Source of the DNA: a virus
Taxonomy: Duplodnaviria; Caudoviricetes
IMG/VR virus record: IMGVR_UViG_3300044642_000273
Location: 1 to 52,394 of that record
Direction: 5' to 3' (one strand)
Length of the DNA: 52,394 bases
The position numbers were made by a program, and so were the translations under genes. The notes below the pieces were generated by a model that had not been told where the DNA came from, did no database searches, and saw nothing but the letters and a program-made list of their open reading frames with translations. This document shows positions 29,668-43,897 of this stretch, piece after piece (positions within the stretch are counted from its first letter, which is position 1; every line of letters starts with the position of its first letter).

Positions 29668-30015
29668 ATGAAAAACTTTATTACTGTATCTCTTGATGGT
29701 TTAGGTAAATTCGTATTAACTGAAACTCGTTTAGTAGTTCAAAACACTGTTATTGTTGAAACCGATAATACAGCTGAATTAACTACAGCTATTTCTAATT
29801 TAACTGAATATAAACGTGCTCAGTTTACAGAAGACGCTAAAAGCGAATTTAAACGAATTGAAAAGGAAGCCAAAATGGCTAACAAACTTAAAAACGACGT
29901 AAAACGTCAAGAACGTGAAGCTAAGAAAGCAGAACGTAAACAAGCTCAAGAAGCTAAGCTAATCGAAAGAATGGCTAAACTTCAAGCACAACTTGAAAAA
30001 GTAAAATCAGCATAA
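29668..30015 (+). CDS. first early gene, basic coiled-coil C-terminus
   Basis: AAAGGA RBS; 115 aa; TAA stop lies in stem I of hammerhead 1. Confidence 0.75.
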   Translation: MKNFITVSLDGLGKFVLTETRLVVQNTVIVETDNTAELTTAISNLTEYKRAQFTEDAKSEFKRIEKEAKMANKLKNDVKRQEREAKKAERKQAQEAKLIERMAKLQAQLEKVKSA

Positions 30016-30061
30016 CTGATGAGTCCTTTATGGACGAAACTACCGAAAGGTAGTCTTATGC
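30010..30061 (+). ncRNA. hammerhead ribozyme 1 (type I)
   Basis: GCAUAA-CUGAUGA-GUCC(UUUAU)GGAC-GAAA-CUACC(GAAA)GGUAG-UC/UUAUGC; predicted cut after 30055. Confidence 0.95.
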
Positions 30062-30487
30062 ACAGAGTGAGCGAAAGCTAATACTTAACCTGCTATTATC
30101 GATTAAGAAGTACGATAAAATACGGGTATTATGAAAAATCAACGAGCAATACGTAATACTGTGGGTGCAAACACTAATCATGTTAGATTCAAGAGGAATG
30201 GACTTGTAAGACTATTCAAACCAAAGTATATGACTAGAGCATATGCAGTTAATTAGTATCTAGAAACTAATTCTTATCCATGAGAGTTCATGAGATCGTT
30301 CGTTATATCGAATCGTTAAAAGAATATAAACGGTTAAGTGGATATGCCGTTCTTACCACAGTAGAGTAATGCACTTAAAATCAGACGCATTCATCGAGCC
30401 AGTGATCTGCAGAACGATGTAAAAGTAATCGAACAGATCCGTTTTGAGGACAACGTAAAAGTCCTCACCAATTATAGTAAAGGAAAT

Positions 30488-30634
30488 ATGAATAAAATTA
30501 TATATAATGGACTTACACGTCCGCAAATGGTTTCTATGATTCACATGGAAACTGATACTTCATTCTGGTGCTACAAAGTGTCTGATGAAGAATTAATCGA
30601 AGGTTTTAAACAAATCTTTGGTACATCTAACTGA
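30488..30634 (+). CDS. small hypothetical protein (48 aa, not in the ORF track)
   Basis: AAGGA RBS, ATG 30488, MNKIIYNGL...FGTSN; TGA stop is inside the CUGAUGA core of hammerhead 2. Confidence 0.6.
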   Translation: MNKIIYNGLTRPQMVSMIHMETDTSFWCYKVSDEELIEGFKQIFGTSN

Positions 30635-30741
30635 TGAGTCCGTAAGGACGAAACCACCCAATATGAAATTCAACAAAACATCGTTGAGCGTATGCGACGA
30701 GCATCCCATTGGAGCTCCAAACTCCCAGAGTGGTCTTAGAT
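30625..30741 (+). ncRNA. hammerhead ribozyme 2 (type I) with 72-nt insertion in stem III
   Basis: AUCUAA-CUGAUGA-GUCC(GUAA)GGAC-GAAA-CCAC[72 nt]GUGG-UC/UUAGAU; predicted cut after 30735. Confidence 0.85.
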
Positions 30742-30755
30742 TAAAAGGAATTATT

Positions 30756-30968
30756 ATGAGTATTTATACAAGTGCATTAGCACGAATCGAAGAAGTAAAT
30801 CGATTAAACAAAAACTTAGGTCATAAAGACGAATGTGGAATTACTGAATCGAAAGATCCAGTCGGCGAAGTAGATCGCTCAGAAGCTGCTTACATTGTTA
30901 AGCGTGCTAAAGAGTTAGGTATTACTCCGTTTGAATTCATTATGAAACCTCTATCAGAGAAGAAATAA
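30756..30968 (+). CDS. hypothetical early protein
   Basis: ATG at 30756 behind AAAAGGA; shorter than the ORF-track call that runs through the ribozyme. Confidence 0.65.
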   Translation: MSIYTSALARIEEVNRLNKNLGHKDECGITESKDPVGEVDRSEAAYIVKRAKELGITPFEFIMKPLSEKK

Positions 30969-31092
30969 TGGATCACAGTAGTCCTAGTGTAACTGAAATT
31001 ATCGAATGGATAGCGACCATTGCGATGTGTACATCATTCTTTGTGATTACATCTTATATTATCGCTAAAATAATTTAATTAAAGGAAATATT

Positions 31093-31350
31093 ATGAAAAG
31101 AGACTATATTGCAGCTTACAATCAACTACAAAAGATCGGCGTTCCTGTATATGAGCATAGTGATGATAAAGGAAACTTTAGCATTGATGCAGAACATCCA
31201 GAATCGTATCTTTGGTGTGATTACTACGATGGTAGCTCCATCCCAGATTGGGACTTTGGCGTTAATCCAAAAATCGGACAAATCCTCTCAAAACGTGGAT
31301 TGTTCGCAGAATGGGTTAATCCAGGACGACTCGCTGTTTACATTATTTAA
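31093..31350 (+). CDS. hypothetical early protein
   Basis: AAAGGA RBS; 85 aa. Confidence 0.7.
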   Translation: MKRDYIAAYNQLQKIGVPVYEHSDDKGNFSIDAEHPESYLWCDYYDGSSIPDWDFGVNPKIGQILSKRGLFAEWVNPGRLAVYII

Positions 31351-31442
31351 AGTAAACGGAAAAGAGTATCACATACTTGCCTACGCTATGCAAATGGCGA
31401 ATGGCAAGGAAATAGAAATCATTAAACATAAAGGAAATTAAT

Positions 31443-31694
31443 ATGAACATGGAACAATTTAAAGAGTTGCAGCAGTATTATGCGCACGATCTATTTGACT
31501 TCGTCTATGGCGAAGGCTTATCATACGAGCTTTACGATAAACTATTTACCATCTATACCGAATCAGGTGAGATGCCTTATGGTGTCGCTAAAGCTCGAAC
31601 TGACGATCCATATACATGGATTGATGATCGCTTTACAGCGTTTATTGAGCAGAACAATCTGCAAGATGAATGTGCAATTGAAAACATTAATTAA
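31443..31694 (+). CDS. hypothetical acidic early protein
   Basis: AAAGGA RBS; GEMPYGVAKART.DP..WI motif. Confidence 0.7.
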   Translation: MNMEQFKELQQYYAHDLFDFVYGEGLSYELYDKLFTIYTESGEMPYGVAKARTDDPYTWIDDRFTAFIEQNNLQDECAIENIN

Positions 31695-31801
31695 GGAAAA
31701 CTTATGAAATATTATTTCGTATTACAAGATGGTTCAGTAGTGTTTGCAAAAACATACGTAGAGCTTAAAGATAAAATTAAACAATACATAGAAAGTAACT
31801 A

Positions 31802-31978
31802 ATGGAATTTATTACAGCACTTATAATCTTAGCAATTTTCGTAGTAGCGGTTATTGGTTATATCATGAACATTGTTAAACTTGTCAGATCTACAGAAATG
31901 ACAGGTAAAACTATTGCACGTGGAATTGGAATATTCTTCTTCCCATTGGGTGCAATCTTAGGTTATGTGTCTAACTGA
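31802..31978 (+). CDS. small membrane protein (58 aa, not in the ORF track)
   Basis: MEFITALIILAIFVVAVIGY...GIFFFPLGAILGYVSN; TGA stop lies in the core of hammerhead 3. Confidence 0.65.
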   Translation: MEFITALIILAIFVVAVIGYIMNIVKLVRSTEMTGKTIARGIGIFFFPLGAILGYVSN

Positions 31979-32019
31979 TGAGTCGGTAACGACGAAACCG
32001 TAGTGATACGGTCTTAGAC
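31969..32019 (+). ncRNA. hammerhead ribozyme 3 (type I)
   Basis: GUCUAA-CUGAUGA-GUCG(GUAA)CGAC-GAAA-CCGUA(GUGA)UACGG-UC/UUAGAC; predicted cut after 32013. Confidence 0.95.
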
Positions 32020-32043
32020 TAAAAGGAGTAGTAAACACTTATT

Positions 32044-32544
32044 ATGAAAAATAATATAAAAGTTGTTATATTGGCTACGTTGATCTTTTTATTAGGTTTG
32101 TTAATCGGTGTAATGATTAAACAAGAAAAAGAAGAGCCAATGATTGTAAAGCCTGTAACAACACAACAGTACGTGAAATACATACGACAAGAAGCTAAAA
32201 AGATCGGTTTAGATCCTGAATTAGCTCTTGCAGTGGCGATTACAGAAAGTGAATTGAACCCTGATGCTAGAAGTAAAGTAGGTGCTATTGGTATTATGCA
32301 AGTAATGCCGACAACTGCTAAATATCTAGGATTTGATCCACACGATCCTACAGAAAATATTAAAGGTGGCTTAGCTTACCTTAAATATCTTGTAGAAAAG
32401 TTTGGTGTAGAGCATGGTGTAGCAGCTTATAACGCTGGTCCAACCCGTATGCATAAAGTGCGTGCTGGTGCTTCAACAATGCCACGTGAAACTAAACACT
32501 ACATCAAGAAAGTAATCGCTAAGAAAAATGAATTAGAAGTTTAA
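32044..32544 (+). CDS. membrane-anchored lytic transglycosylase (SLT domain)
   Basis: N-terminal TM; ITES, GAIGIMQVMPTT, AAYNAGP, ET.HY motifs. Confidence 0.9.
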   Translation: MKNNIKVVILATLIFLLGLLIGVMIKQEKEEPMIVKPVTTQQYVKYIRQEAKKIGLDPELALAVAITESELNPDARSKVGAIGIMQVMPTTAKYLGFDPHDPTENIKGGLAYLKYLVEKFGVEHGVAAYNAGPTRMHKVRAGASTMPRETKHYIKKVIAKKNELEV

Positions 32545-32562
32545 TATTATAAAGGAAATAAA

Positions 32563-32709
32563 ATGGAAATGAAGTATTTAATTATCGCAATCGGTATAGT
32601 GTATTTACTAATTGGTATCGATCAGCTTCGCAAAGGAGCTGTTGGTAACTTTATTATTTATGCTGGATATGCGTTTAGTAACGTCGGCCTATTTATGATG
32701 GCCAAATAA
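32563..32709 (+). CDS. small membrane protein (48 aa, not in the ORF track)
   Basis: AAAGGA RBS; MEMKYLIIAIGIVYLLIG... hydrophobic. Confidence 0.6.
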   Translation: MEMKYLIIAIGIVYLLIGIDQLRKGAVGNFIIYAGYAFSNVGLFMMAK

Positions 32710-32860
32710 GATTGCCTGGTTGGAGCATCACGAAAGTGAAAACAACCTAGCGCTTATTCGCTCTACCCTTTGATCGGGTAAGCGCACGCTTTTGCATCTT
32801 GAGCGGAAAAATCAAGGTGCCATTTGGAATGCATTTTACACTAGAATGTATTCCCAATGA
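32705..32860 (+). ncRNA. candidate structured RNA element
   Basis: Four consecutive helical domains in an intergenic gap, including a GAAA-capped hairpin and G-U-containing stems; family not recognised. Confidence 0.4.
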
Positions 32861-32902
32861 CTCAACTATTACGTAAGTTATTGATTTTAATAAGGAAATT
32901 TT

Positions 32903-33250
32903 ATGAATATACAAGAAATGAGAGCCAACTTTCTAAATGGCAAATTATATGCAATGCATCATGCTTACTCAGACGTTAATCCGTATGAAGTATTACGAGT
33001 TGTAAGTGATAATTGTTTGGAGATACGTGCAATGGACCATGAAAATGATCCTAACGATATGCCAAAGTTTATAGCAGGTGGCTTTAGCGTCATTTGCACT
33101 CATTTTGGATCTCGAGTAATCACTTCAAATCCAAATAATCGTGTAATTCGTATTAGACGTAGAAAGAAAGATCCAAATAGATGGGTTCACAAAGGTATGA
33201 GATTTACCTTAGATGTAGAACCTCATGCTTATTACGATCATAATTTCTAA
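32903..33250 (+). CDS. hypothetical protein
   Basis: AAGGA RBS; 115 aa. Confidence 0.7.
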   Translation: MNIQEMRANFLNGKLYAMHHAYSDVNPYEVLRVVSDNCLEIRAMDHENDPNDMPKFIAGGFSVICTHFGSRVITSNPNNRVIRIRRRKKDPNRWVHKGMRFTLDVEPHAYYDHNF

Positions 33251-33367
33251 TATGATAATACTAATACTATTACTGGGTATTATGACCATCAACGTTATAC
33301 TAGCTTTTGTTTTACGCAAGTATAGCATTTATAAAGATTCAGATTTTAAAGGAAAAGATAAGAAATA

Positions 33368-33637
33368 ATGTATAATCAATTTAGAGAACATGTAAGATTT
33401 AAAGACTATGGCACTACTAGAGCAGAGCTAATCGAAGAGTTTAGAAAATTCTATGACGCTGATTTAGAGAAAGCCACTAAACAGTTTGAGTTTCATGAAG
33501 AGATGGCAGGACACAATTTCCTAGTTGTTGCAGTTACTAGACAACCAGTCAATTCTTTAGGACATCATACTATTGAGGTAACATTGGCACCAATAGACAA
33601 AGTAGATGATGATTTAATCTACCCGGAAGGAGACTAA
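33368..33637 (+). CDS. hypothetical protein
   Basis: 89 aa ORF abutting the ligase gene. Confidence 0.6.
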   Translation: MYNQFREHVRFKDYGTTRAELIEEFRKFYDADLEKATKQFEFHEEMAGHNFLVVAVTRQPVNSLGHHTIEVTLAPIDKVDDDLIYPEGD

Positions 33638-33638
33638 T

Positions 33639-34472
33639 ATGAGTGAATTTAAACTAATGTTAGCATCTGTATGTGATCCAGCAAAGCTTGTCTTTCCTAA
33701 ACTCGCATCACCAAAACTTGACGGTATTCGTTGCACCATTCGTAATGGCACTGCGCTAAGCCGTAACGGTAAACCTATTCGAAATAAGTTTGTGCAGTCC
33801 ATTATTGGTAACAATCACTTAAACGGATTGGATGGCGAACTTATGGTTGGCGATCCAACTGCAAGTGATGCTTTCCGTCAAGCAACGTCTGGCGTTATGT
33901 CAGAAGACGGTGAGCCAAAGTTTACGTTTATGGTGTTTGACTATTACCATTCAGACTTAGGCTTTAGTGACCGCTTACAGTTAGCGAAAGAGATGGTGCA
34001 AGACTTTGGCGTACCTAAATACGTAAAGATTGTGCCACATAAGAAAGTAAAAGACATCGCTCAGCTAGACGCTCTTGAAGAGAAATGGCTTGAAGATGGA
34101 TACGAAGGTGTTATGCTACGTTCATTAGATGGTCCATACAAACTTGGACGATCAAGCGTAACTGAAGGACATTTACTGAAAGTGAAACGCTTTAGCGATG
34201 CTGAAGCTACTATCGTAAGCTACGTAGAAGAAATCCATGGCAAAACACAATTGCCAAAGAATTCTTTAGGTAAGTTTATGTGCCGTACACCAGAAGGTAT
34301 TGTATTCGGTGTAGGTGGTGGATATAGCGCTAAAGAGCGCAAAGAGTTTTGGGAAAATCGAGATGCGATGATTGGACTTACGTTGAAGTATAAATACTTT
34401 ACTGTAGGTATGAAAGATGCTCCACGATTCCCGACATTCTTAGGTATTCGTGATGAAAACGATATGAGTTAA
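33639..34472 (+). CDS. lig: ATP-dependent DNA ligase
   Basis: KLDGIR adenylation motif, LDGEL, FD, EGVMLR, LKVK, PRFP.F. Confidence 0.95.
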   Translation: MSEFKLMLASVCDPAKLVFPKLASPKLDGIRCTIRNGTALSRNGKPIRNKFVQSIIGNNHLNGLDGELMVGDPTASDAFRQATSGVMSEDGEPKFTFMVFDYYHSDLGFSDRLQLAKEMVQDFGVPKYVKIVPHKKVKDIAQLDALEEKWLEDGYEGVMLRSLDGPYKLGRSSVTEGHLLKVKRFSDAEATIVSYVEEIHGKTQLPKNSLGKFMCRTPEGIVFGVGGGYSAKERKEFWENRDAMIGLTLKYKYFTVGMKDAPRFPTFLGIRDENDMS

Positions 34473-34518
34473 ACTGATGAGGCTTTAGTAGCCGAAACGC
34501 CGTGACGGCGTCTTTAAC
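34468..34518 (+). ncRNA. hammerhead ribozyme 4 (type I)
   Basis: GUUAAA-CUGAUGA-GGCU(UUAGU)AGCC-GAAA-CGCCG(UGA)CGGCG-UC/UUUAAC; predicted cut after 34512; ligase TAA lies in stem I. Confidence 0.95.
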
Positions 34519-34536
34519 ATTTTATAAAGGAATATT

Positions 34537-34923
34537 ATGGGATTAGATATGTTTGCGCATAGCGTCGCTAAAAATAACGCTATTGATGACCTCACTATGA
34601 CTAGTGATACTGACAGTCCACAAGATAACGTTGAAATTTTCTATTGGAGAAAACATCACGATTTGCATGGATGGATGAAAGAGCTATTTCATTCTAAAGG
34701 TGGTGAAGGTGAGTTTAATCTTCAACCTATTCGTCTTACATTAGATGATTTAGATAAACTCGAAGCAGCGGTGTTACAAAACACTCTACCTTTTACTACA
34801 GGAATGTTTTTCGGAAACAACCCGCCTGATGAAGAATCGCAGACGCGTGATTTAACGTTTATTGACAAAGCACGCTCACACATCTATGTTGGACGTGAAA
34901 TTTATTATAACTCTTGGTGGTAA
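34537..34923 (+). CDS. conserved phage hypothetical protein
   Basis: MGLDM...YWRKH..LHGWM...YYNSWW pattern; AAAGGA RBS. Confidence 0.75.
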   Translation: MGLDMFAHSVAKNNAIDDLTMTSDTDSPQDNVEIFYWRKHHDLHGWMKELFHSKGGEGEFNLQPIRLTLDDLDKLEAAVLQNTLPFTTGMFFGNNPPDEESQTRDLTFIDKARSHIYVGREIYYNSWW

Positions 34924-34925
34924 TC

Positions 34926-35156
34926 ATGGAAAAATGGCTTACCTTAACCAAATGGTTAGGAACTATTTTGTGTCTAACAGGTATAGCACTTACTAGCTTC
35001 AACATTTATCCGTTAAATATTGTACTAAGCCTTATAGGCAGCTTACTATGGACAGTGGCAGGATTCCTTCAAAAGGATCCTCCATTAATCTTAGTAGAAG
35101 CAGCTGCGGTTGGGCTTTACTTTATTGGTATAATTACTTATTTAGGAACATTATGA
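34926..35156 (+). CDS. small membrane protein
   Basis: Three hydrophobic segments; probable ATG at 34926. Confidence 0.65.
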   Translation: MEKWLTLTKWLGTILCLTGIALTSFNIYPLNIVLSLIGSLLWTVAGFLQKDPPLILVEAAAVGLYFIGIITYLGTL

Positions 35157-35410
35157 AAAAATTTAAGATAGGAGATTTAGTCGCTGTAAACACTTTACCT
35201 GATTGCCAAGTATATCATCTATACGAGCAACATCAGAGAAATAAGTTTATGTTTTATCTAACTTACTACTCAAATGGGAAGTTGTGCGGCGGAGGTTGGT
35301 TAGACGTTAGCGCTTTTCGCGAACCGTCAAAGGATCAACTTAAAAACTACATAGCTACATCGCTGCCTGAAATCGGCGTATCTGCTACTGAAGATGCAGT
35401 AACAAATTAA
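35153..35410 (+). CDS. hypothetical protein
   Basis: Probable start MKKFKIGD at 35153 overlapping the upstream stop (ATGA). Confidence 0.6.
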   Translation: MKKFKIGDLVAVNTLPDCQVYHLYEQHQRNKFMFYLTYYSNGKLCGGGWLDVSAFREPSKDQLKNYIATSLPEIGVSATEDAVTN

Positions 35411-35427
35411 TTTATAAGGAAAACATT

Positions 35428-35889
35428 ATGAAAGAAAATAAATTGGCTCAAATGCCAGCAGGTAAGTATTGGATTGGTGACTTGTGTTATGTAATGCACG
35501 ATAATTGGGATGAGTTTTGCCAAAAAGCTTACGACAGTGAAACTGGTAAAGACAACAATGGTCTTATGGTTCTCAATAACGGCACCAAAGTCGCATGGTT
35601 TAACACTAAGTGGGGCGATGGACTCTATCGCGATACCAGAGGTAATAGGTATCCTGTAGACGCAGGTCTTATTGGGTGCATAAAGATGAACGACATCGAC
35701 TTTGACCATCCGCATAACGATCTACTTGGAGGCAATATAGTCTCATTCAAAGAAGATTTCGAATGTGGATATGAAAATGGTCTTATTTGGTTTGGTCATG
35801 GCAAAGACTCAGTTGAAATTCAAACTGACGATATGTATGGCGAAGACGAAGAGGAAGAAGACGAAGATTACGAACAATCTTATAACTAA
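35428..35889 (+). CDS. conserved phage hypothetical protein with acidic tail
   Basis: YWIGDLCYVM, T.WGDG.Y, VDAGLIG motifs. Confidence 0.7.
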   Translation: MKENKLAQMPAGKYWIGDLCYVMHDNWDEFCQKAYDSETGKDNNGLMVLNNGTKVAWFNTKWGDGLYRDTRGNRYPVDAGLIGCIKMNDIDFDHPHNDLLGGNIVSFKEDFECGYENGLIWFGHGKDSVEIQTDDMYGEDEEEEDEDYEQSYN

Positions 35890-36070
35890 GGAAAAAACAA
35901 ATGGACATTATTGCACAACGTGAAAGAATGCGTAATCGCAAAAAAGTATTAACAGAGCAAGTTAAGACATTGTTAGCACAAGAAGAGTATGACGATTACG
36001 TTGTTGCTCTTGCTAAAGGAAGAGTGTTTGAACTTGAAGAACAGTATTATGAATTATTTGGAGAAGATTT

Positions 36071-36397
36071 ATGAAATCTAATAAACAACGAACAGAAAAC
36101 TGGGTCGCTACTCTACCTACACTCACCTCGCCAGAAGACCAAATGGCCTTAGCAGCCATTAAGTCGTCTGTAAAGGCTATCAACATGCAAAATGCGCATC
36201 ACGATCACTTAGCTTATGGCAAAGGGTGGAGAAGTTATAAGCGTTTCGATGCTGATTGTAACGAGCGCCGCTTACCTCGCTATCGCGTCACCATTAGAGC
36301 GCGTGGTCCAGTTGATGGACATAAGTATGGATGGGGCGGGTATCTCAAACTCGCTGGTGGTAGCCGCTTTGACATCTACATTCACGAAAGACGCTAA
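36071..36397 (+). CDS. hypothetical protein
   Basis: GGAG RBS; 108 aa. Confidence 0.6.
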   Translation: MKSNKQRTENWVATLPTLTSPEDQMALAAIKSSVKAINMQNAHHDHLAYGKGWRSYKRFDADCNERRLPRYRVTIRARGPVDGHKYGWGGYLKLAGGSRFDIYIHERR

Positions 36398-36591
36398 TGA
36401 CTAAATTTATCGTAGTGGAAACAACTAAAGAAAATAAAGATCGTAAACTCGCTGTAAAAGACTCTTTAGCTGAAGCTATGAAAGAGCAAAAGAAACAGCG
36501 AAAGCTAGTGCCTGATACTTCAGCTGTCAGTATTGCTGAGAAAGACACTTACGATTTTATTCAAAAGCATAACAAGAAAAAGTCAAACTGA
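36397..36591 (+). CDS. small basic hypothetical protein
   Basis: TAATG overlap with the upstream gene; TGA stop lies in the core of hammerhead 5. Confidence 0.65.
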   Translation: MTKFIVVETTKENKDRKLAVKDSLAEAMKEQKKQRKLVPDTSAVSIAEKDTYDFIQKHNKKKSN

Positions 36592-36632
36592 TGAGTCCTC
36601 AATGGACGAAACGCCGAGATGGCGTATTTGAC
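36582..36632 (+). ncRNA. hammerhead ribozyme 5 (type I, GUA site)
   Basis: GUCAAA-CUGAUGA-GUCC(UCAAU)GGAC-GAAA-CGCC(GAGAU)GGCG-UA/UUUGAC; predicted cut after 36626. Confidence 0.93.
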
Positions 36633-36692
36633 ACTCCGTATCGCTACGGAGACCCAACTATAACGTAAGTTATTGATTATAAAGGACTTATT

Positions 36693-37031
36693 ATGAAAGA
36701 GTTATTAACATTAATACGTAGACGCTTAAGCGACGCAAAAGAGCGCGTAAATAAGCAAGCAAAGAAATCACGATATTTAGAGTTTAACGTGACTGTAGAG
36801 TATTTACTACAACTATGGATGAAACAGAATGGAAAATGCGCTATTGAGAATATTCCACTATCAATAGAAACACACTCTATTACAATTGCTTCATTAGACA
36901 GAATTAACTCTGATGTTGGATACGTAGAAGGAAACGTTCAATGGGTTACAAAGCGCGTAAATATCGCAAAAAGTAATCTATCTGACGCTGACTTTAAAGC
37001 AATGATTTTCAACGCTTACAAAGGACTTTAA
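36693..37031 (+). CDS. HNH-like endonuclease-fold protein
   Basis: LW.KQ.GKCA, SLDRINS..GY..GNVQWV...VN.AK. Confidence 0.75.
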   Translation: MKELLTLIRRRLSDAKERVNKQAKKSRYLEFNVTVEYLLQLWMKQNGKCAIENIPLSIETHSITIASLDRINSDVGYVEGNVQWVTKRVNIAKSNLSDADFKAMIFNAYKGL

Positions 37032-37032
37032 T

Positions 37033-37305
37033 ATGGCTGGAGAGCAAGCAAGTAGTGTATCAACGCGAGAATTTAAAGGCTATAAAGTAAAGCCTCATAA
37101 TAAACCACCATCATCGGTATATTTCAATCAAATTAAAAAGTTTATAATTGAGAGATATCCAACGATGTATACTATATGCAAAGAACGGTATGGAGAAAAA
37201 GAGTGGTGGGAGATTGTGTATAAAGAAATGACAGAATACACTTTCGACTTTGAAGACAATCAAGCAAGATTTCTATACGCAAAGTACGTAAAGGAGTTTA
37301 AATGA
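37033..37305 (+). CDS. hypothetical protein
   Basis: AAGGA RBS; 90 aa. Confidence 0.6.
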   Translation: MAGEQASSVSTREFKGYKVKPHNKPPSSVYFNQIKKFIIERYPTMYTICKERYGEKEWWEIVYKEMTEYTFDFEDNQARFLYAKYVKEFK

Positions 37306-37784
37306 ATATTTTCTACTTAGCAGCAGATCCGTATGTGGCAGCATCTATGCATTGTGATAAACACGTTTGTAAAATGATTATTGAAACAGCACAAATGTTG
37401 TCATCAGTGCAAGCAAGGTATGGATCAGACAATACTCCTTACAAACCTACTCACGTAAAACATCCATCAACGTTATGGGCAGGTGATTCTGCTTCTAACT
37501 ATAAATGGCTAGTGAGCTTAGGTAAAGGCTTATGTAATGAATACACTAGACGGTATGGCAAAATCCATAAGACGCAAGAGATTATAGACAAATTGTCGGA
37601 ATCTCCTGATGGTCTACCGGATGTTGGATATACTAAGATGCCACAGTGTATGCCTGAAGAGTATAAGACTGAAGATTCTATTACTGCTTATCGTAATTAT
37701 TACATTGCTGATAAAATGCGATTTGCAAAATGGAAATATACAGAAACACCAGCATGGTGGCCAAGTGTAACTGAAGAGGCTTGA
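37302..37784 (+). CDS. pyrimidine-dimer DNA glycosylase / endonuclease V-like family protein
   Basis: MNIFYL, HCDKHV.KMI.E.AQMLS, YKPTH..HP, EY..RYGK.H, AYR.YY motifs. Confidence 0.7.
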   Translation: MNIFYLAADPYVAASMHCDKHVCKMIIETAQMLSSVQARYGSDNTPYKPTHVKHPSTLWAGDSASNYKWLVSLGKGLCNEYTRRYGKIHKTQEIIDKLSESPDGLPDVGYTKMPQCMPEEYKTEDSITAYRNYYIADKMRFAKWKYTETPAWWPSVTEEA

Positions 37785-37815
37785 ATAGCCGAAACGCCGA
37801 GATGGCGTCTTACAC
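37765..37815 (+). ncRNA. hammerhead ribozyme 6 (type I, CUGAAGA core)
   Basis: GUGUAA-CUGAAGA-GGCU(UGAAU)AGCC-GAAA-CGCC(GAGAU)GGCG-UC/UUACAC; predicted cut after 37809. Confidence 0.93.
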
Positions 37816-37832
37816 ATTATTAAAGGAGGAAG

Positions 37833-39389
37833 ATGAGTACAGTAAAAGAAAAGTTGTACGTCCTTCGACGTGAAAAATCGGTCTTAGAGGCCGACTTGCG
37901 ATCTCTAAAAGCGAGACGTGAGAATGCCAAGCGCGCTAACAGACAGGCTATTGACGTAGGTCCTGATCCGTTTTACTATCGCGTAGGTATGGACTTTCGC
38001 GGTCGCCTTTACTATAAAGGTGCCCACTTAAATCCACAAATGGGTGATGATGTAAAGGTAGTATTGACGTTAGCCAATAAGAAACCTCTAGGCACTAATG
38101 GACTCCATTGGTTATGTTGGGGAGTCGCTTCTGCGGCTGGCTACGATAAAGCCGCTTTTGGTGCACGTGTTACATACACTCGTGAGCATTTGCAAGAGAT
38201 ACGTAAGGCAGTAGAAGACCCATCAACATCAGATTATTTTATAAACACTGTGATGAAAGATGGTGAGCCTGCGCTATTTCTTCAACGCGCTAATGAGTTG
38301 ATTAATGCGATAGATAGTGGTGATAGCGCTTCATACGAGACTGATGTAACGATCGCTATGGACGCTACATGCTCTGGTTTGCAGATTCTATCAGCAGTCG
38401 CTAAGGATCGTCAAGGTGGTAGTTTAGTAAACATCACTGAAACTCCTGAAACGCAGACTGAAAAGGCTGATGTGTATGGCACAGTTGCAAAACTAATCTT
38501 GAAGAAGTATTCACAACTTCCAGAAAACTATTTTGCACAATGGGTAATTCTAAATGGAATACCTCGAAGATTTACTAAGCGTCCTGTTATGACATTACCT
38601 TATTCAGCTACTATTCGTAGTGCTATCGGTTATGTCCAGACAGAGTTGCAAGGTAATTCAGAAAAAGGTATTGCACCTTATCCTTTACCACCATCAGAAG
38701 AAGATAGACGACGTTTACAACTATCAATTAAATCTCTAATGGGTAAAGAAGAATCAGGCGAAGTAAAGTTGGACGATAATTCACTTTATTACGGTATGGC
38801 AACTCTTATTGCGCGTGACATTCACGGCGTATGTAGAGAAACTATTCCTGCCGCAATGACTCTTCTTGAATTCTTTAAATCTACACCAAAGAAGTTATAC
38901 GATCACGCTATTTGGAATACTCCTGATGGCTTATATGTAAAACAGCGCTATGGCGTTGAAGAAGAGAGTCGTACTAAGTATACGCTAACATGGGTAGACC
39001 AAGATACTGGTGAGATTTGCCAGAAACTTATCCAACGTAGATATGCGTATATCGACCCAAGTGATAGAGATAGAAGTAAAGCGTCTAACGGTATGCCTCC
39101 TAATTGGGTGCACTCTTTAGATGGCACATTAGTGCGTAGAGTTATGCTAAGCGCTCCTTTTGAGATTATCGCCATCCATGATTCATTCGCTGCACATCCT
39201 GCAGACTGTGATGATTTGGCTAGAATCTTACGTGAGCAATTCGTATGGATCGTTGAGCAAGAGCCTTTGCAACGCTTAATCGATCAGCTTAACGCGCAAG
39301 TTGGAGAAGAGGTCTTTAAGTCAGAGCCACTTATGTTAAATACGTGGAATCCTAAAGAAGCCTTAAACTCTGAATTTCTATTTTGTTAA
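37833..39389 (+). CDS. T7-like RNA polymerase, C-terminal (catalytic) subunit
   Basis: DFRGRLY, DATCSGLQ (motif A), R-x3-K-x7-YS (motif B), PNWVHSLDG, IHDSF (motif C), C-terminal FLFC; lacks the N-terminal domain. Confidence 0.95.
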   Translation: MSTVKEKLYVLRREKSVLEADLRSLKARRENAKRANRQAIDVGPDPFYYRVGMDFRGRLYYKGAHLNPQMGDDVKVVLTLANKKPLGTNGLHWLCWGVASAAGYDKAAFGARVTYTREHLQEIRKAVEDPSTSDYFINTVMKDGEPALFLQRANELINAIDSGDSASYETDVTIAMDATCSGLQILSAVAKDRQGGSLVNITETPETQTEKADVYGTVAKLILKKYSQLPENYFAQWVILNGIPRRFTKRPVMTLPYSATIRSAIGYVQTELQGNSEKGIAPYPLPPSEEDRRRLQLSIKSLMGKEESGEVKLDDNSLYYGMATLIARDIHGVCRETIPAAMTLLEFFKSTPKKLYDHAIWNTPDGLYVKQRYGVEEESRTKYTLTWVDQDTGEICQKLIQRRYAYIDPSDRDRSKASNGMPPNWVHSLDGTLVRRVMLSAPFEIIAIHDSFAAHPADCDDLARILREQFVWIVEQEPLQRLIDQLNAQVGEEVFKSEPLMLNTWNPKEALNSEFLFC

Positions 39390-39397
39390 GGAGTTAC

Positions 39398-40285
39398 ATG
39401 AATTTACATCAAAGAGAGATTGAATTAGAGAATGCTAAGTTGGCAAAGGATCGCCACTTAGAGATTCGTCAGAAACTTGACTCTATTTCAATCGAATTCT
39501 CGAAAGAGATTATTGACTTAAGCTTTCACATTGATAAATGGAGAAAGGTAGATAGAAAACCTAGAGAAGTTGAAAGACTAGCTTATGCTAGCTTGTTAAA
39601 TAAAGTGCCTTCTATCGTTCTAGCAGAAAACGTTGTTCGTGCTTTATTCGAATCATACATTAACGTAGACATTGGAGCACCTTTAACGTATGCTACTGTT
39701 GTTAACAATAAGTTAATTCAGCAGAGATTACGTAGTTTACTTCCTAACGAGGAAACAGCAATACCGATACAGTTTAAATTCTCTTTAGTAGATTTACTAG
39801 TATCCCGTACTGTTAGATATCTTCCTTCATTATTTATCGATGTTGAAAGTAGAAAACTTGGTACTCCAGACTCCATCGAACTCACAAAAGTCGCAAAAGA
39901 GCGTTTAGGCAAGATTTCTATTCAGGAATTGTTAACTGACGTTCCAATGAGATGCAAACCTGCGAAATGGACTTCAGTATTTCATGGTGGTTTCTTAACA
40001 TCAGAAATGCAGCGTGGAAATCCACTGATTGGGTCTCGTTATCACGATTATAAAGAATTGATTGAAATCGATAAGTCTTTGCAAAGTAATCCTGAAATTT
40101 TAGAATCTGTAAATAAAATGCAAAACGTAGCATTTAAAATCGATCCTAACTTTCAGAAATATCAAAAGATTATTGATGATATTCGAAAATCGAAGATAAA
40201 AGAGATTCAAACTCAAATCGACAAGAAGCGAGAAGAGATTTCACGATGTGAAAAGGAGTTAGATTTGAGTATCCCTATTAGATAG
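39398..40285 (+). CDS. T7-like RNA polymerase, N-terminal subunit
   Basis: HQREIELE, IELT, PMRCKPAKW....GGF, VNKMQNVAFKID match T7 RNAP N-terminal motifs (QLALEHE, IELA, PCVVPPKPW...GGGY, INIAQNTAWKIN); ATG 39398 behind AAGGAG. Confidence 0.82.
   Translation: MNLHQREIELENAKLAKDRHLEIRQKLDSISIEFSKEIIDLSFHIDKWRKVDRKPREVERLAYASLLNKVPSIVLAENVVRALFESYINVDIGAPLTYATVVNNKLIQQRLRSLLPNEETAIPIQFKFSLVDLLVSRTVRYLPSLFIDVESRKLGTPDSIELTKVAKERLGKISIQELLTDVPMRCKPAKWTSVFHGGFLTSEMQRGNPLIGSRYHDYKELIEIDKSLQSNPEILESVNKMQNVAFKIDPNFQKYQKIIDDIRKSKIKEIQTQIDKKREEISRCEKELDLSIPIR
40265..40278 (+). promoter_or_regulatory. TTGAGTATCCCTAT, candidate phage-RNAP promoter for the replication genes
   Basis: 14-bp identity with the two minus-strand repeats at 28993 and 29172; about 50 nt upstream of the SSB start. 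Confidence 0.5.
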
Positions 40286-40329
40286 ACCATACGGGATATC
40301 TAGTTTTTAACTTATGGAGAATAGCCAAG

Positions 40330-40884
40330 ATGGCAAAACTAAAAACTGCAATTACACCGAAAGGTACTTTATCATGGCCATACATTGGTCGTCCTGATAC
40401 AAGATACAATCCTGAAGGTGTCTATAAGACCAGCTTAATTGTACCGGCAGCTGAAGCCGAATCGCTGATGGAAACATGCAAACAGATGTTTATTGATGAG
40501 TATGGTAATGCCAAACTCGCCAAAGCGAACATGCCTTTCTCACCTGAAGTCGATGACCAAGGTAACGAAACAGGCAACATCGTGTTTAAGTTTAAATCTA
40601 AACGACAGCCAAAACTGTATGACGCTAAAGGTAAAGTAATTACTAAAAACCTTCAAGTTGCATCAGGCACAGTGGCTAAAGTCGCTACAGCGATTAATCC
40701 TTACGCTACAGGTATCAACGTTGGTGTTTCACTTTATTTGAACGACGTTCAGATTATCGAGTTAGTAGAATACGGCAAAGGCAGCCTATTCGGACAAGAA
40801 GATGGTTTCGAGTTCGACGACGATGGTGAGCCTAACGAACCTTCTACTACTGGATCGAAGAGTGAAGAAAACGCGGACTTCTAA
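40330..40884 (+). CDS. single-stranded DNA-binding protein (T7 gp2.5-like)
   Basis: TPKG...P....PD...P.G.YK, FKFK, P..YDAKG, GVSL.L..VQIIELVE, acidic tail ending in DF. Confidence 0.9.
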   Translation: MAKLKTAITPKGTLSWPYIGRPDTRYNPEGVYKTSLIVPAAEAESLMETCKQMFIDEYGNAKLAKANMPFSPEVDDQGNETGNIVFKFKSKRQPKLYDAKGKVITKNLQVASGTVAKVATAINPYATGINVGVSLYLNDVQIIELVEYGKGSLFGQEDGFEFDDDGEPNEPSTTGSKSEENADF

Positions 40885-41269
40885 GCAAGTTGGAATTTAT
40901 CACGGATTTCGAAGTGGTCTTGAGGAACGCATAGCGGAGCAATTGACAACGCTTAACGTTCCTTTCACCTTTGAAGAGGTCAAGATAAAGTATGTGAAAC
41001 CTCAACGATCTGCTACCTATTGTCCGGATTTTATCCTGTCGAATGGTATCATCGTTGAGACTAAAGGTCGTTTCCTAACGGCTGATAGACAAAAGCACAT
41101 ACTGATTAAAGAGCAGCATCCTGAGTTGGACTTACGTTTTGTATTTAGTAACTCAAATGCACGTATCTCTAAGACTTCGAAAACTACATACGCAGATTGG
41201 TGTATTAAAAATGGGTTTGTCTTTGCAGATAAACTTATTCCAATCGAATGGATAAACGAAACACGCTAA
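40862..41269 (+). CDS. endonuclease I / Holliday junction resolvase (T7 gp3-like)
   Basis: FRSGLE, Y.PDF.L.NGIIVETKG, DRQKH.LIKEQHPELD.RFVF; start uncertain (GTG 40862). Confidence 0.93.
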   Translation: MKKTRTSKQVGIYHGFRSGLEERIAEQLTTLNVPFTFEEVKIKYVKPQRSATYCPDFILSNGIIVETKGRFLTADRQKHILIKEQHPELDLRFVFSNSNARISKTSKTTYADWCIKNGFVFADKLIPIEWINETR

Positions 41270-41279
41270 GGAGAATACG

Positions 41280-42899
41280 TTGATTGAAAATGAAGAGTCG
41301 AGATTCCTAAGACACGAATCCTGCGACAGTTGCGGATCGAGCGACGCTAAGGCAGTTTATTCGAATGGATCGACCTTTTGCTTCGCTTGTCAAGTTTCTA
41401 CTCGCAGTGAAGGTGGCAAAACTAAGGTGATGAATAACACATCTCCTTCTCTTGCACCATTCTTTGACGCTCAAATAGAGCCACTCGCCGCTAGAGGTAT
41501 TTCCGAAGCGACTTGTAAACGGTTTGGCGTACGTAAAGGTGATTTAAATGGACGTAATGTCCACTTCTATCCTTACGTTGTAGATGGTGAAGTAGTTGCC
41601 GCTAAGACTAGAGATAAAGACAAAAACTTCAAGATTATTGGAGATGGAAAAGACTTACCATTCTTTGGTCAGCATCTTACTCCTAATCCAAGTGATAAAC
41701 TTACTTTAGTTGTTACTGAAGGTGAGATCGATGCGCTATCTATGTCTCAGATTATGGGAAATAAATGGCCTGTTGTATCTATTCCACAAGGAGCTCAAGG
41801 CGCCATAAAAACTTTTAGAAGCCAAATTGAATGGCTAGATAAGTTTAAAGATGTTGTTATCATGTTTGATAATGATGGTGCTGGTAGAGATGCCGCTCTG
41901 AAATGTGCTGAAGTATTACGACCTGGTAAAGCCAGAATCGCTTCACTTCCGCTCAAAGACGCCAACGAAATGTTGATGGCTGAGCGTACTGAGGAGTTGA
42001 TGAAGGCGTTTTGGGACGCTAAGCACTTCCGTCCGGATGGTATTCTATCTGGAAATGAGTTGTGGGAATCTGTATCACGTGAAGAGTCTACCATCACAGT
42101 AGAGTATCCTTTCTCGAAACTAAATGAAACTACTTTAGGTATTCGTAGAGGTGAGCTAGTGACTGTTACGGCAGGCTCAGGTATTGGTAAGTCAGCGTTT
42201 ATGCGAGAAATCGCGCATCATTTACTTTCACTAGGTGAGACAGTGGGTATGGTGATGTTAGAAGAAAATCCTAGACGAACTGCATTAGGTCTTATGGGAT
42301 TATCTTTGAATAAACCTTTGCACTTATCTCGTGACGGTGTATCTAATGAAGAGTTACGCAAAGCGTTTGATGACACATTAGGCACCAATCGTGTATTCTT
42401 ATACGATCACTTTGGTAGTACGGAAGTAGATTACCTTATGAATAAATTAAGGTATATGGTAAAAGGTTTACAGTGTAATTGGTTGATTCTTGACCACCTA
42501 TCCATTCTTGTATCAGGATTGGAAGGCGTAGATGAGCGTAGACTTATCGATCAAGCAATGACTATGTTACGTACCTTTGTTGAAGAAACAGGTTGTGGAT
42601 TGTTGTTAGTAAGCCATTTACGACGGCCAGATGGAAAAGGCCATGAAGAAGGAGCTGCTACATCACTATCACAATTGCGTGGATCACATGCCATCGCTCA
42701 ACTCTCTGACATTGTAGTCGGTTTAGAGCGTAATCAACAAGGTGACAATCCTAATGAAACTCAAATTAGAGTATTAAAGAATCGTTTCTCTGGTCAAACT
42801 GGAGAAGCTGGTAAACTTTACTTTAATCGAGAGACAGGACGATTGACTGAAACATTTACTATGGCACCTGAAACATTCACAGCAAGTTCGGATTTTTAA
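41280..42899 (+). CDS. primase-helicase (T7 gp4-like)
   Basis: Cys4 zinc finger (C..CGSSD...CF.C), TOPRIM EGEID and FDND, AGSGIGKS Walker A, LDH, LRGS..IAQLSD, KNRF.G.TG. Confidence 0.96.
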   Translation: MIENEESRFLRHESCDSCGSSDAKAVYSNGSTFCFACQVSTRSEGGKTKVMNNTSPSLAPFFDAQIEPLAARGISEATCKRFGVRKGDLNGRNVHFYPYVVDGEVVAAKTRDKDKNFKIIGDGKDLPFFGQHLTPNPSDKLTLVVTEGEIDALSMSQIMGNKWPVVSIPQGAQGAIKTFRSQIEWLDKFKDVVIMFDNDGAGRDAALKCAEVLRPGKARIASLPLKDANEMLMAERTEELMKAFWDAKHFRPDGILSGNELWESVSREESTITVEYPFSKLNETTLGIRRGELVTVTAGSGIGKSAFMREIAHHLLSLGETVGMVMLEENPRRTALGLMGLSLNKPLHLSRDGVSNEELRKAFDDTLGTNRVFLYDHFGSTEVDYLMNKLRYMVKGLQCNWLILDHLSILVSGLEGVDERRLIDQAMTMLRTFVEETGCGLLLVSHLRRPDGKGHEEGAATSLSQLRGSHAIAQLSDIVVGLERNQQGDNPNETQIRVLKNRFSGQTGEAGKLYFNRETGRLTETFTMAPETFTASSDF

Positions 42900-42916
42900 C
42901 TTTATTGGAGAATTAA

Positions 42917-43186
42917 ATGTCAACACAATTATACTTTGCAGTAAAAGCAATTAAAGAAAACAAAAACGGCGCTACTTCGCAACACTTAGCGAAATACGGT
43001 ATCAAGAATGCCTCAGCCGTAATCTCAACACTACGCAAACGTGGCCACACTATTGTGACACAATTCGTAACCAAGAATGGTCAACGTGTTGGTAAATATT
43101 TGATGCCTTTTGGCACACGTACTGAAGAAGCAAAACTTACTAAAACAGCTCGTAAGGCAATTGCCAAGGAGTTTGGGTTAGCATAA
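42917..43186 (+). CDS. small basic winged-helix-like DNA-binding protein
   Basis: GI.N.SA.IS.LRK.GH.I pattern; GGAG RBS. Confidence 0.6.
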   Translation: MSTQLYFAVKAIKENKNGATSQHLAKYGIKNASAVISTLRKRGHTIVTQFVTKNGQRVGKYLMPFGTRTEEAKLTKTARKAIAKEFGLA

Positions 43187-43241
43187 ATGTAACTTATTAT
43201 ATACAAAATAGCATGTTTATGTATATTATATGATACAATCA

Positions 43242-43301
43242 GTCTGACTGATGAGCCTTAAATAGGCGAAACCGCCACTCGGGAGAGTCGCGGTCTCAGA
43301 C
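43242..43301 (+). ncRNA. hammerhead ribozyme 7 (type I)
   Basis: GUCUGA-CUGAUGA-GCCU(UAAAU)AGGC-GAAA-CCGC.ACUC(GGGA)GAGU.GCGG-UC/UCAGAC; predicted cut after 43295. Confidence 0.93.
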
Positions 43302-43371
43302 ACTCAAAACTATATCGATAAACTGAATCGAATCCTCCTGTAGTTTTAACATCCAATAGGAGTTAAATACT

Positions 43372-43782
43372 ATGAGCATTAAATCGCAAATTATTATGTC
43401 AAGCCGAGAGCATTACAAGGCTCACATTCGTAAACATGTCACTAACATCAACGCAATTCTTGCTAATCCAATCGCTATTCCTGAGCACACAGACATCATG
43501 GACTCGGTTGAAAAAGAACTGTTTGTCATTAGTGAATACGAAAGCAAATTACAAGCATTAGACAAATACATTAAAGATGAGTCTGATGATAATGGTAATA
43601 ACGGCAACAATGGTAATGGCAACGGTGGTAATAATGGAAACAACGGTAATAATGACACAAGCACTACTACCGAATCTTCTACAACTACCGAGACTAATGA
43701 GACTTCAACCACTCAACAAGAAGCCACCATTACAGTCGGTGCAGGCTCTCATTTAACTATTGAGAGACCTTTTACAGTCTAA
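43372..43782 (+). CDS. helical protein with Asn/Gly- and Thr/Glu-rich low-complexity tail
   Basis: AGGAG RBS; TAA stop lies in stem I of hammerhead 8. Confidence 0.7.
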   Translation: MSIKSQIIMSSREHYKAHIRKHVTNINAILANPIAIPEHTDIMDSVEKELFVISEYESKLQALDKYIKDESDDNGNNGNNGNGNGGNNGNNGNNDTSTTTESSTTTETNETSTTQQEATITVGAGSHLTIERPFTV

Positions 43783-43828
43783 CTGATGAGTCCTACATGG
43801 ACGAAACCGTAGTGATACGGTCTTAGAC
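43777..43828 (+). ncRNA. hammerhead ribozyme 8 (type I)
   Basis: GUCUAA-CUGAUGA-GUCC(UACAU)GGAC-GAAA-CCGUA(GUGA)UACGG-UC/UUAGAC; predicted cut after 43822. Confidence 0.95.
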
Positions 43829-43897
43829 AATCCCAACTACATCATAAGTAGTTGAATTGATTACAAATATTTACCCTACCAAGTAGAATAGGATAAA

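Follow-up and report, generated by a model that had tools for sequence, protein, structure and literature searches.

Loop II ends and the bases flanking stem I are co-selected in phage type I hammerheads, with a candidate role-swapped A:U contact

The hammerhead is the best-studied small ribozyme, and a contact between stem I and loop II accounts for the difference of several orders of magnitude that separates its minimal from its natural forms. Here this contact is considered for eight hammerheads encoded in the virus record IMGVR_UViG_3300044642_000273, a sequence of 52,394 nt without end repeats that was analysed over its whole length and is referred to below as the window. In these hammerheads and in a large external sample, the first and last bases of loop II go together with the two bases that flank stem I, which are called 2.7 on the 5' side and 1.7 on the 3' side. 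The co-selection of loop ends and flanks is real and localised, and it separates two classes of hammerhead. The contact of class 1 is already established, while that of class 2 was not found described. On present sequence evidence, the most probable reading of class 2 is a novel form of this stem I/loop II contact.

Described contacts and the two classes in the window

The nearest described contact is the UNmYN / RNnA motif, a reverse Hoogsteen pair that joins the last base of loop II to U1.7 (AL-last:U1.7), as given in the accessible parts of PMC2632901 and PMC6155905. A simpler form was put forward by O'Rourke et al. 2015: according to the portion of PMC11875169 that describes their work, an AL4:U1.7 Hoogsteen contact was proposed to be sufficient in minimal constructs. 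In the CChMVd (-) hammerhead the roles of the two bases have been swapped artificially, and the U1A/A8U double mutant partly regains activity (Dufour et al. 2009; accessible text of PMC2632901). Pseudoknot hammerheads form a further group, in which the contact keeps stems I and II parallel (Perreault et al. 2011; available part of PMC3088659). The same part of that paper also states that many natural hammerheads fit no recognised contact.

A motif search together with our own parser found exactly eight type I hammerheads in the window, all on the + strand between 30010 and 43828. Each of the eight has the CUGANGA and GAAA core, three helices with an open stem I, a stem I of exactly 6 bp, a stem II of 4 bp and, after U16.1, a cleavage triplet whose last base is H. 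The triplet is GUC, except in hammerhead 5 (36582), where it is GUA, and N7 of the core is A in hammerhead 6 (CUGAAGA). The stem III hairpins measure 15-82 nt. A covariance model built from the eight and run on the whole window, on both strands and with filters off, found these eight again, with scores of 51.8-74.9 bits. The best further match reached only 11.8 bits (E 0.81), and eight is therefore the full count, with no ninth copy. Judged by sequence and predicted fold, all eight qualify as genuine hammerhead ribozymes of type I. A preliminary description of this DNA had listed the same elements, and the parser agreed with every coordinate and letter it gave, including the 6-bp stem I in all eight.

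That description had proposed that loop II covaries with the base following stem I, forming two classes. In class 1 (hammerheads 2 and 3), loop II is GUAA, 1.7 is U and 2.7 is C or U. In class 2 (hammerheads 1 and 4-8), loop II has the form U-NNN-U and both 1.7 and 2.7 are A. The eight copies are listed below, with bit scores from the covariance model built on them ("own model").

Hammerhead 1, 30009..30062, + strand: class 2; stem I start 30010, end 30061, strands GCAUAA/UUAUGC; loop II UUUAU; A2.7 (30009), A1.7 (30062); GAAA caps stem III; own model 71.2 bits; Rfam model RF00163 27.8 bits, below its cut-off.
Hammerhead 2, 30624..30742, + strand: class 1; stem I start 30625, end 30741, strands AUCUAA/UUAGAU; loop II GUAA; C2.7, U1.7 (30742); stem III unusually long at 82 nt (30654-30735); own model 51.8 bits.
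Hammerhead 3, 31968..32020, + strand: class 1; stem I start 31969, end 32019; loop II GUAA; U2.7, U1.7 (32020); own model 67.4 bits.
Hammerhead 4, 34467..34519, + strand: class 2; stem I start 34468, end 34518; loop II UUAGU; A2.7, A1.7 (34519); overlaps the stop codon of the DNA ligase open reading frame (ORF) 33639-34472; own model 69.8 bits.
Hammerhead 5, 36581..36633, + strand: class 2; stem I start 36582, end 36632; loop II UCAAU; A2.7, A1.7 (36633); own model 72.7 bits.
Hammerhead 6, 37764..37816, + strand: class 2; stem I start 37765, end 37815; loop II UGAAU; A2.7, A1.7 (37816); directly upstream of the RNA polymerase ORF 37833-39389; own model 71.2 bits.
Hammerhead 7, 43241..43302, + strand: class 2; stem I start 43242, end 43301; loop II UAAAU; A2.7, A1.7 (43302); stem III 24 nt; own model 67.6 bits.
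Hammerhead 8, 43776..43829, + strand: class 2; stem I start 43777, end 43828; loop II UACAU; A2.7, A1.7 (43829); directly upstream of the DNA polymerase ORF 43898-45697; own model 74.9 bits; RF00163 36.9 bits against a cut-off of 34.

Hammerheads 3 and 8 belong to different classes. Their stems I and III are identical (similarity 1.0), whereas stem II, loop II and the flanks on both sides are different. In other words, the window contains a natural swap of the stem II hairpin together with the flanks.

How do the two classes compare with the described contacts? Like the UNmYN / RNnA motif, they concern the final loop II base and the unpaired base that directly follows a stem I of 6 bp. The sequence features of that motif, which are an A at the 3' end of loop II, a purine (G) at its 5' end and an unpaired U1.7, are met only in hammerheads 2 and 3. 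The six class 2 copies instead have U as the first and last loop base and A at 1.7, plus a conserved A2.7 and a G2.6-C1.6 pair. Furthermore, class 2 has no loop or bulge in stem I, and the putative partners of loop II are the transcript on either side of the helix. Hammerheads 2 and 3 also resemble natural versions of the minimal design of O'Rourke, Estell and Scott 2015 as it is described second-hand in the accessible part of PMC11875169, with a GNRA-type tetraloop on a stem II of 4 bp, a stem I of 6 bp and an unpaired U1.7. An A-U contact between a GNRA loop II and the U beyond stem I, which the preliminary description had cited as established, corresponds to the AL4:U1.7 proposal reported there. 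The constructs of that design are engineered and act in trans, and class 2 has no counterpart among those described in that part of the paper.

Class 2 resembles, rather, a natural use of the pair that was swapped artificially in the U1A/A8U mutant. However, the CChMVd (-) hammerhead is a type III viroid hammerhead with large loops, its rescue was partial, and as presented in the accessible text of PMC2632901 it has neither the A2.7/G-C frame nor a U-first pentaloop. The preliminary description had suggested that class 2 uses a reversed or alternative U-A contact. This suggestion stands in part: the partial rescue makes a role swap plausible, but class 2 has more than a single reversed pair (A2.7, G2.6-C1.6, a U-first loop and an A at loop position 3 or 4), and some loops ending in G also take A1.7. 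A literature search, with supplementary alignments (e.g. those of Perreault et al. 2011) outside its coverage, found no description of a class combining U...U loops with A-A flanks.

The split of two against six in the window is perfect. Because its chance is 1/28 for the window alone and the copies are paralogues, the window by itself is weak evidence, and other sequences were therefore sampled.

Coupling of loop II ends and flanks in a wider sample

The external sample came from four exact-pattern scans that fixed only the core and the stem II family, three of them on IMG/VR and one on prokaryotic genomes. Each scan gave at least 120 loci, and all counts below apply among the matches listed. 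Every hammerhead in the fetched loci was parsed with the same script, whatever its stem II. Removal of identical sequences and of loops II longer than 7 nt left 370 unique type I hammerheads from 250 loci, of which 301 had a stem I of 6 bp. The scan of prokaryotic genomes yielded mostly type III hammerheads of Patescibacteria metagenome-assembled genomes (MAGs), and 19 of its hammerheads entered the type I tables. Coupling counts were taken on the 325 hammerheads with a stem I of at least 6 bp.

The coupling seen in the window is kept far beyond it. Loops II ending in U go with A1.7 in 195 of 196 cases, and loops ending in A go with U1.7 in 67 of 80, the remainder having A (10) or C (3). The association between the last loop base and 1.7 has a Fisher p of 2e-53 at the sequence level. 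It recurs in each of three viral sets: U-last with A1.7 and A-last with U1.7 count 67/68 and 20/22 in set V1, 77/77 and 8/13 in set V4, and 48/48 and 23/28 in set V5. The preliminary description had named a loss of the correlation in a larger alignment among the outcomes that would speak against its proposal; no such loss occurred, and the rule holds in these 325 other unique hammerheads.

Mutual information places the coupling precisely. The last loop base shares 0.63 bits with 1.7 and 0.31-0.35 bits with 1.6, 2.6 and 2.7 (shuffle maximum 0.07), and the signal vanishes one base further out, at 0.02 bits with 1.8 and 0.03 bits with 2.8. The first loop base shares 0.45 bits with 2.7. The second loop base shows no mutual information above shuffles, and loop positions 2-4 reach at most 0.14 bits with any of 1.7-1.10 or 2.7-2.10 (shuffle maximum 0.09). 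This low value implies at most one pair per side in class 2. The pseudoknot hammerheads described in the available part of PMC3088659 likewise lie in intergenic arrays of phages and prophages, and their contacts are helices of several base pairs. Class 2 as a pseudoknot-stabilised hammerhead was ruled out, as the middle bases of its loop are coupled to the flanks hardly or not at all.

An alignment of a random 150 of 184 pentaloop hammerheads, 6 of them the window's own, gave a similar picture. Stems I-III form standard pairs in 99-100% of cells, against 24-35% in slid controls. For each inner pair of stem I (four pairs, columns 4-7), 63-107 sequences are changed on both sides, and for the two end pairs of stem I the numbers are 18 and 22. 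Between the last loop base and 1.7 the counts are UA 105, AU 14, GC 3 and other 28; between 2.7 and the first loop base they are AU 144, UA 2, GU 1 and other 3. A MAFFT alignment of 67 tetraloop hammerheads misplaced many 3' ends, and tetraloop counts were therefore taken from the parser instead.

Type III hammerheads in the sampled loci follow the class 1 rule, A-last loops going with U1.7 in 62 of 66 cases from viral loci and 116 of 118 from genome loci. U-last loops are rare among them (6 viral, 2 genome) and follow no rule, which suggests that class 2 is a type I form carried on virus contigs. The type III hammerheads of Patescibacteria MAGs have an AAAA loop II and a loop I that starts with U after a 6-bp stem I.

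A direct contact in class 2 and its alternatives

Class 2 accounts for 195 of the 325 sampled hammerheads of phage contigs, and its signature extends beyond the two loop ends. A2.7 and A1.7 are each present in 194 of the 195, the 2.6-1.6 position holds a purine-pyrimidine pair, which is G2.6-C1.6 in 189, and stem I is exactly 6 bp in all 195. Stem II has 4 bp, and loop II starts and ends with U and is 5 nt long in 173. Among the pentaloops, position 3 is A in 119 of 129, and an A stands at position 3 or 4 in all 129.

What would hold such a frame together? A stem I of 6 bp would put an unpaired seventh layer, with 2.7 on the 5' side and 1.7 on the 3' side, beside loop II. The ends of loop II are co-selected with this layer, and two docking solutions would result. 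In class 1, a loop ending in A goes with an unpaired U1.7 opposite a pyrimidine at 2.7, which corresponds to the known reverse-Hoogsteen A:U contact of extended hammerheads. In class 2, a U-N-A/N-N-U loop would face A2.7 and A1.7 resting on the G2.6-C1.6 pair. The last loop U would pair with A1.7, which is the known pair with the roles swapped, the first loop U would pair with A2.7, and both U:A pairs would stack on the G-C pair. Docking of this kind would keep stems I and II parallel and so may support cleavage at low Mg2+. We consider it probable, at roughly 0.7, that the co-selection of loop II and flanks in class 2 reflects a direct contact. The most probable form of this contact is the A:U pair with exchanged roles, set in a larger conserved frame.

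Intermediate forms fit two putative contacts, one between the first loop base and 2.7 and one between the last loop base and 1.7, stacked on the sixth pair of stem I. A-NNN-A loops have U/U flanks in 5 of 6 cases. Of 23 U-NNN-A loops, 15 have A2.7 with U1.7, a possible seventh base pair, and the other 8 have A/A flanks. UNNA tetraloops have U1.7 in 5 of 5, with Y/U flanks in four and A/U in one. U-NNN-G loops have A2.7 in 33 of 33 and A1.7 in 25 of 33, and at 2.6-1.6 they carry A-U in place of G-C more often than U-NNN-U loops do (12/38 versus 3/173; Fisher p 5e-8).

Coupling could also be indirect, without base-to-base pairs. The flanking A's would then be stacking caps that end stem I at 6 bp and stabilise its end, the fold of the U-N-A-N-U loop itself (a UNR-type turn) would be what favours that loop, and the two would be co-selected through the overall geometry of folding or docking. 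The invariant 6-bp stem I closed by G-C, the near-constant A at loop position 3 and the A/A flanks of U-NNN-G loops, which a strict U:A pair leaves unexplained, all speak for coupling of this indirect kind. However, it offers no account of why A-last loops go with U1.7 or A-NNN-A loops with U/U, nor of why the ends of the loop, and not its middle, carry the information. We regard indirect coupling as unlikely.

Several further observations weigh against a direct contact. The last loop base does not follow a clean pairing rule, as shown by the U-NNN-G loops with A1.7, the U-NNN-A loops with A/A flanks and the 13 of 80 A-last loops that miss U1.7. The G-last cases imply that the second contact is not a strict Watson-Crick rule. 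A scan aimed at G-last loops gave 65 loci and one aimed at C-last loops gave 10, the latter being all that IMG/VR holds with that stem II; among these, type I cases were too rare for a test of a C:G state. NNNG tetraloops have C1.7 in 21 of 27 cases and 19 have the same stem I; the G-last/C1.7 group is thus essentially one lineage, provides no independent covariation and was not counted. The counts refer to sequences and not to independent events, hammerheads within a phage are paralogous, and the clustering used below is crude. The sample is restricted to seed-pattern cores reading CUGAUGAG and to three stem II families, at at least 120 loci per scan. Finally, U7 (U1.7) was not essential for enhancement in the trans constructs described in the accessible part of PMC11875169.

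Could the pattern be due to descent only? Two or three lineages, carried from phage to phage by duplication and recombination, might each have retained the loop and flanks of their ancestor, without any contact. Arrays of paralogous hammerheads are common in the sampled loci, the G-last/C1.7 group is one lineage (19/27 with the same stem I), and single-linkage clustering on stems I and III merges the many sequences into 59 clusters. The association nevertheless survives at the cluster level: 18 clusters combine A-last loops with U1.7 and 3 combine them with A, and 30 clusters combine U-last loops with A whereas no cluster combines them with U. While 2.7, 1.7 and the 2.6-1.6 pair are fixed in class 2, the rest has diverged: inner stem I comes in 67 sequences, stem III in 150 and the stem II strand in 24, and 2.8 and 1.8 vary as well. 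The fall in mutual information from 0.63 bits at 1.7 to 0.02 at 1.8 also argues against descent only. Moreover, both classes occur together in eleven loci, where 34 of 39 hammerheads follow the rule, and hammerheads 3 and 8 of the window differ only in the stem II hairpin and flanks. Descent only is, in our view, quite unlikely.

A role of the A-G...C-A frame outside the ribozyme, as a signal at the mRNA ends (the new 5' end downstream or 3' end upstream) or as a codon or stop-codon constraint, is very improbable: stem I 5' strands do overlap stop codons of upstream ORFs, and in several copies the cleavage site lies 15-35 nt upstream of Shine-Dalgarno-like sequences, but such a signal would not track the sequence of loop II ~25-30 nt away, and the frame is kept across loci with unrelated neighbouring genes.

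In its furthest form, a direct contact would make class 2 a tertiary motif of its own, and a minimal one. A U-N-A-N-U loop, possibly a U-turn, would open so that its terminal U's pair with A2.7 and A1.7, giving two U:A pairs between the helices that stack on G2.6-C1.6. The result would be full-speed cleavage at cellular Mg2+ from ~50 nt, and stem I would need neither loop nor bulge. This full motif is offered tentatively, and we think it somewhat doubtful as a whole.

Genomic setting and meaning of the array

The ORFs neighbouring the hammerheads encode a transglycosylase-like protein, an ATP-dependent DNA ligase, an endonuclease VII-like protein, a DNA-binding protein, an RNA polymerase, a gp2.5-like single-strand-binding protein, an endonuclease, a primase/helicase and a DNA polymerase. 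The last is ~40% identical to Autographiviridae polymerases. Between 29900 and 44000 the genes are similar in order and content to those of the T7 replication module. ORF 37833-39389 (518 aa) encodes the catalytic RNA polymerase domain (PF00940, E 2e-60; positions 348-816 of the phrog_414 profile). The next ORF downstream, 39383-40285 (300 aa), has a weak match to the N-terminal part of this RNA polymerase, at phrog_414 positions 210-326 (E 9e-12) and with 23.3 bits, below the cut-off, against PF14700. This arrangement suggests a split single-subunit RNA polymerase whose putative N-terminal-like piece is encoded after the catalytic piece (37833-40285).

The hammerheads share nucleotides with the stop codons of upstream ORFs and are followed by the next gene. 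The stop codons at 30013-30015, 34470-34472 and 36589-36591 lie inside the 5' strand of stem I or the core CUGA, so that coding sequence and ribozyme overlap. The same layout has already been described for phage and prophage hammerhead arrays (available part of PMC3088659). At the site of hammerhead 2, related lake-phage contigs have a short, tetraloop-capped stem III instead of one of 82 nt, and the long stem III of hammerhead 2 therefore looks like an insertion into the ribozyme.

DNA sequencing runs that contain the stretch are labelled as lake water metagenomes, and no RNA sequencing run containing it is listed. In contigs from four DNA contig sets, the hammerhead stretches attract contigs of other phages. 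Neither a megablast search of 15 kb of the window nor a blastn search with hammerhead 8 gave a match in the same collection of cultured phages. Model R1 had no match in any of five complete Autographiviridae genomes picked by DNA polymerase similarity (0/5), and thus no isolate carrying these ribozymes was found. The array also exposes an annotation gap. Only hammerhead 8 passes the gathering score of Rfam RF00163 (clan CL00010), and four more copies score 12-29 bits; with one of eight above the threshold, routine annotation would miss most of the array.

In T7, RNase III processing sites lie between early and middle genes. The hammerheads of the window presumably occupy the places where T7 has these sites. 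Both would be intergenic cuts in a T7-like polycistronic transcript, an analogy of role only: the host enzyme cuts at the T7 sites, whereas the phage hammerheads are predicted to be cut by the RNA itself. Located between, and overlapping the ends of, T7-like replication and transcription genes, the hammerheads would cut the polycistronic transcript of an uncultivated lake phage.

If the direct contact is true, a docking contact would be assigned to the 195 of 325 sampled type I hammerheads of phage contigs that belong to class 2, and the conserved A:U contact would be usable with its roles swapped. Class 2 would then provide a self-cleaving module of ~50 nt that needs only one A on each side, which may be handy for transcript insulators.

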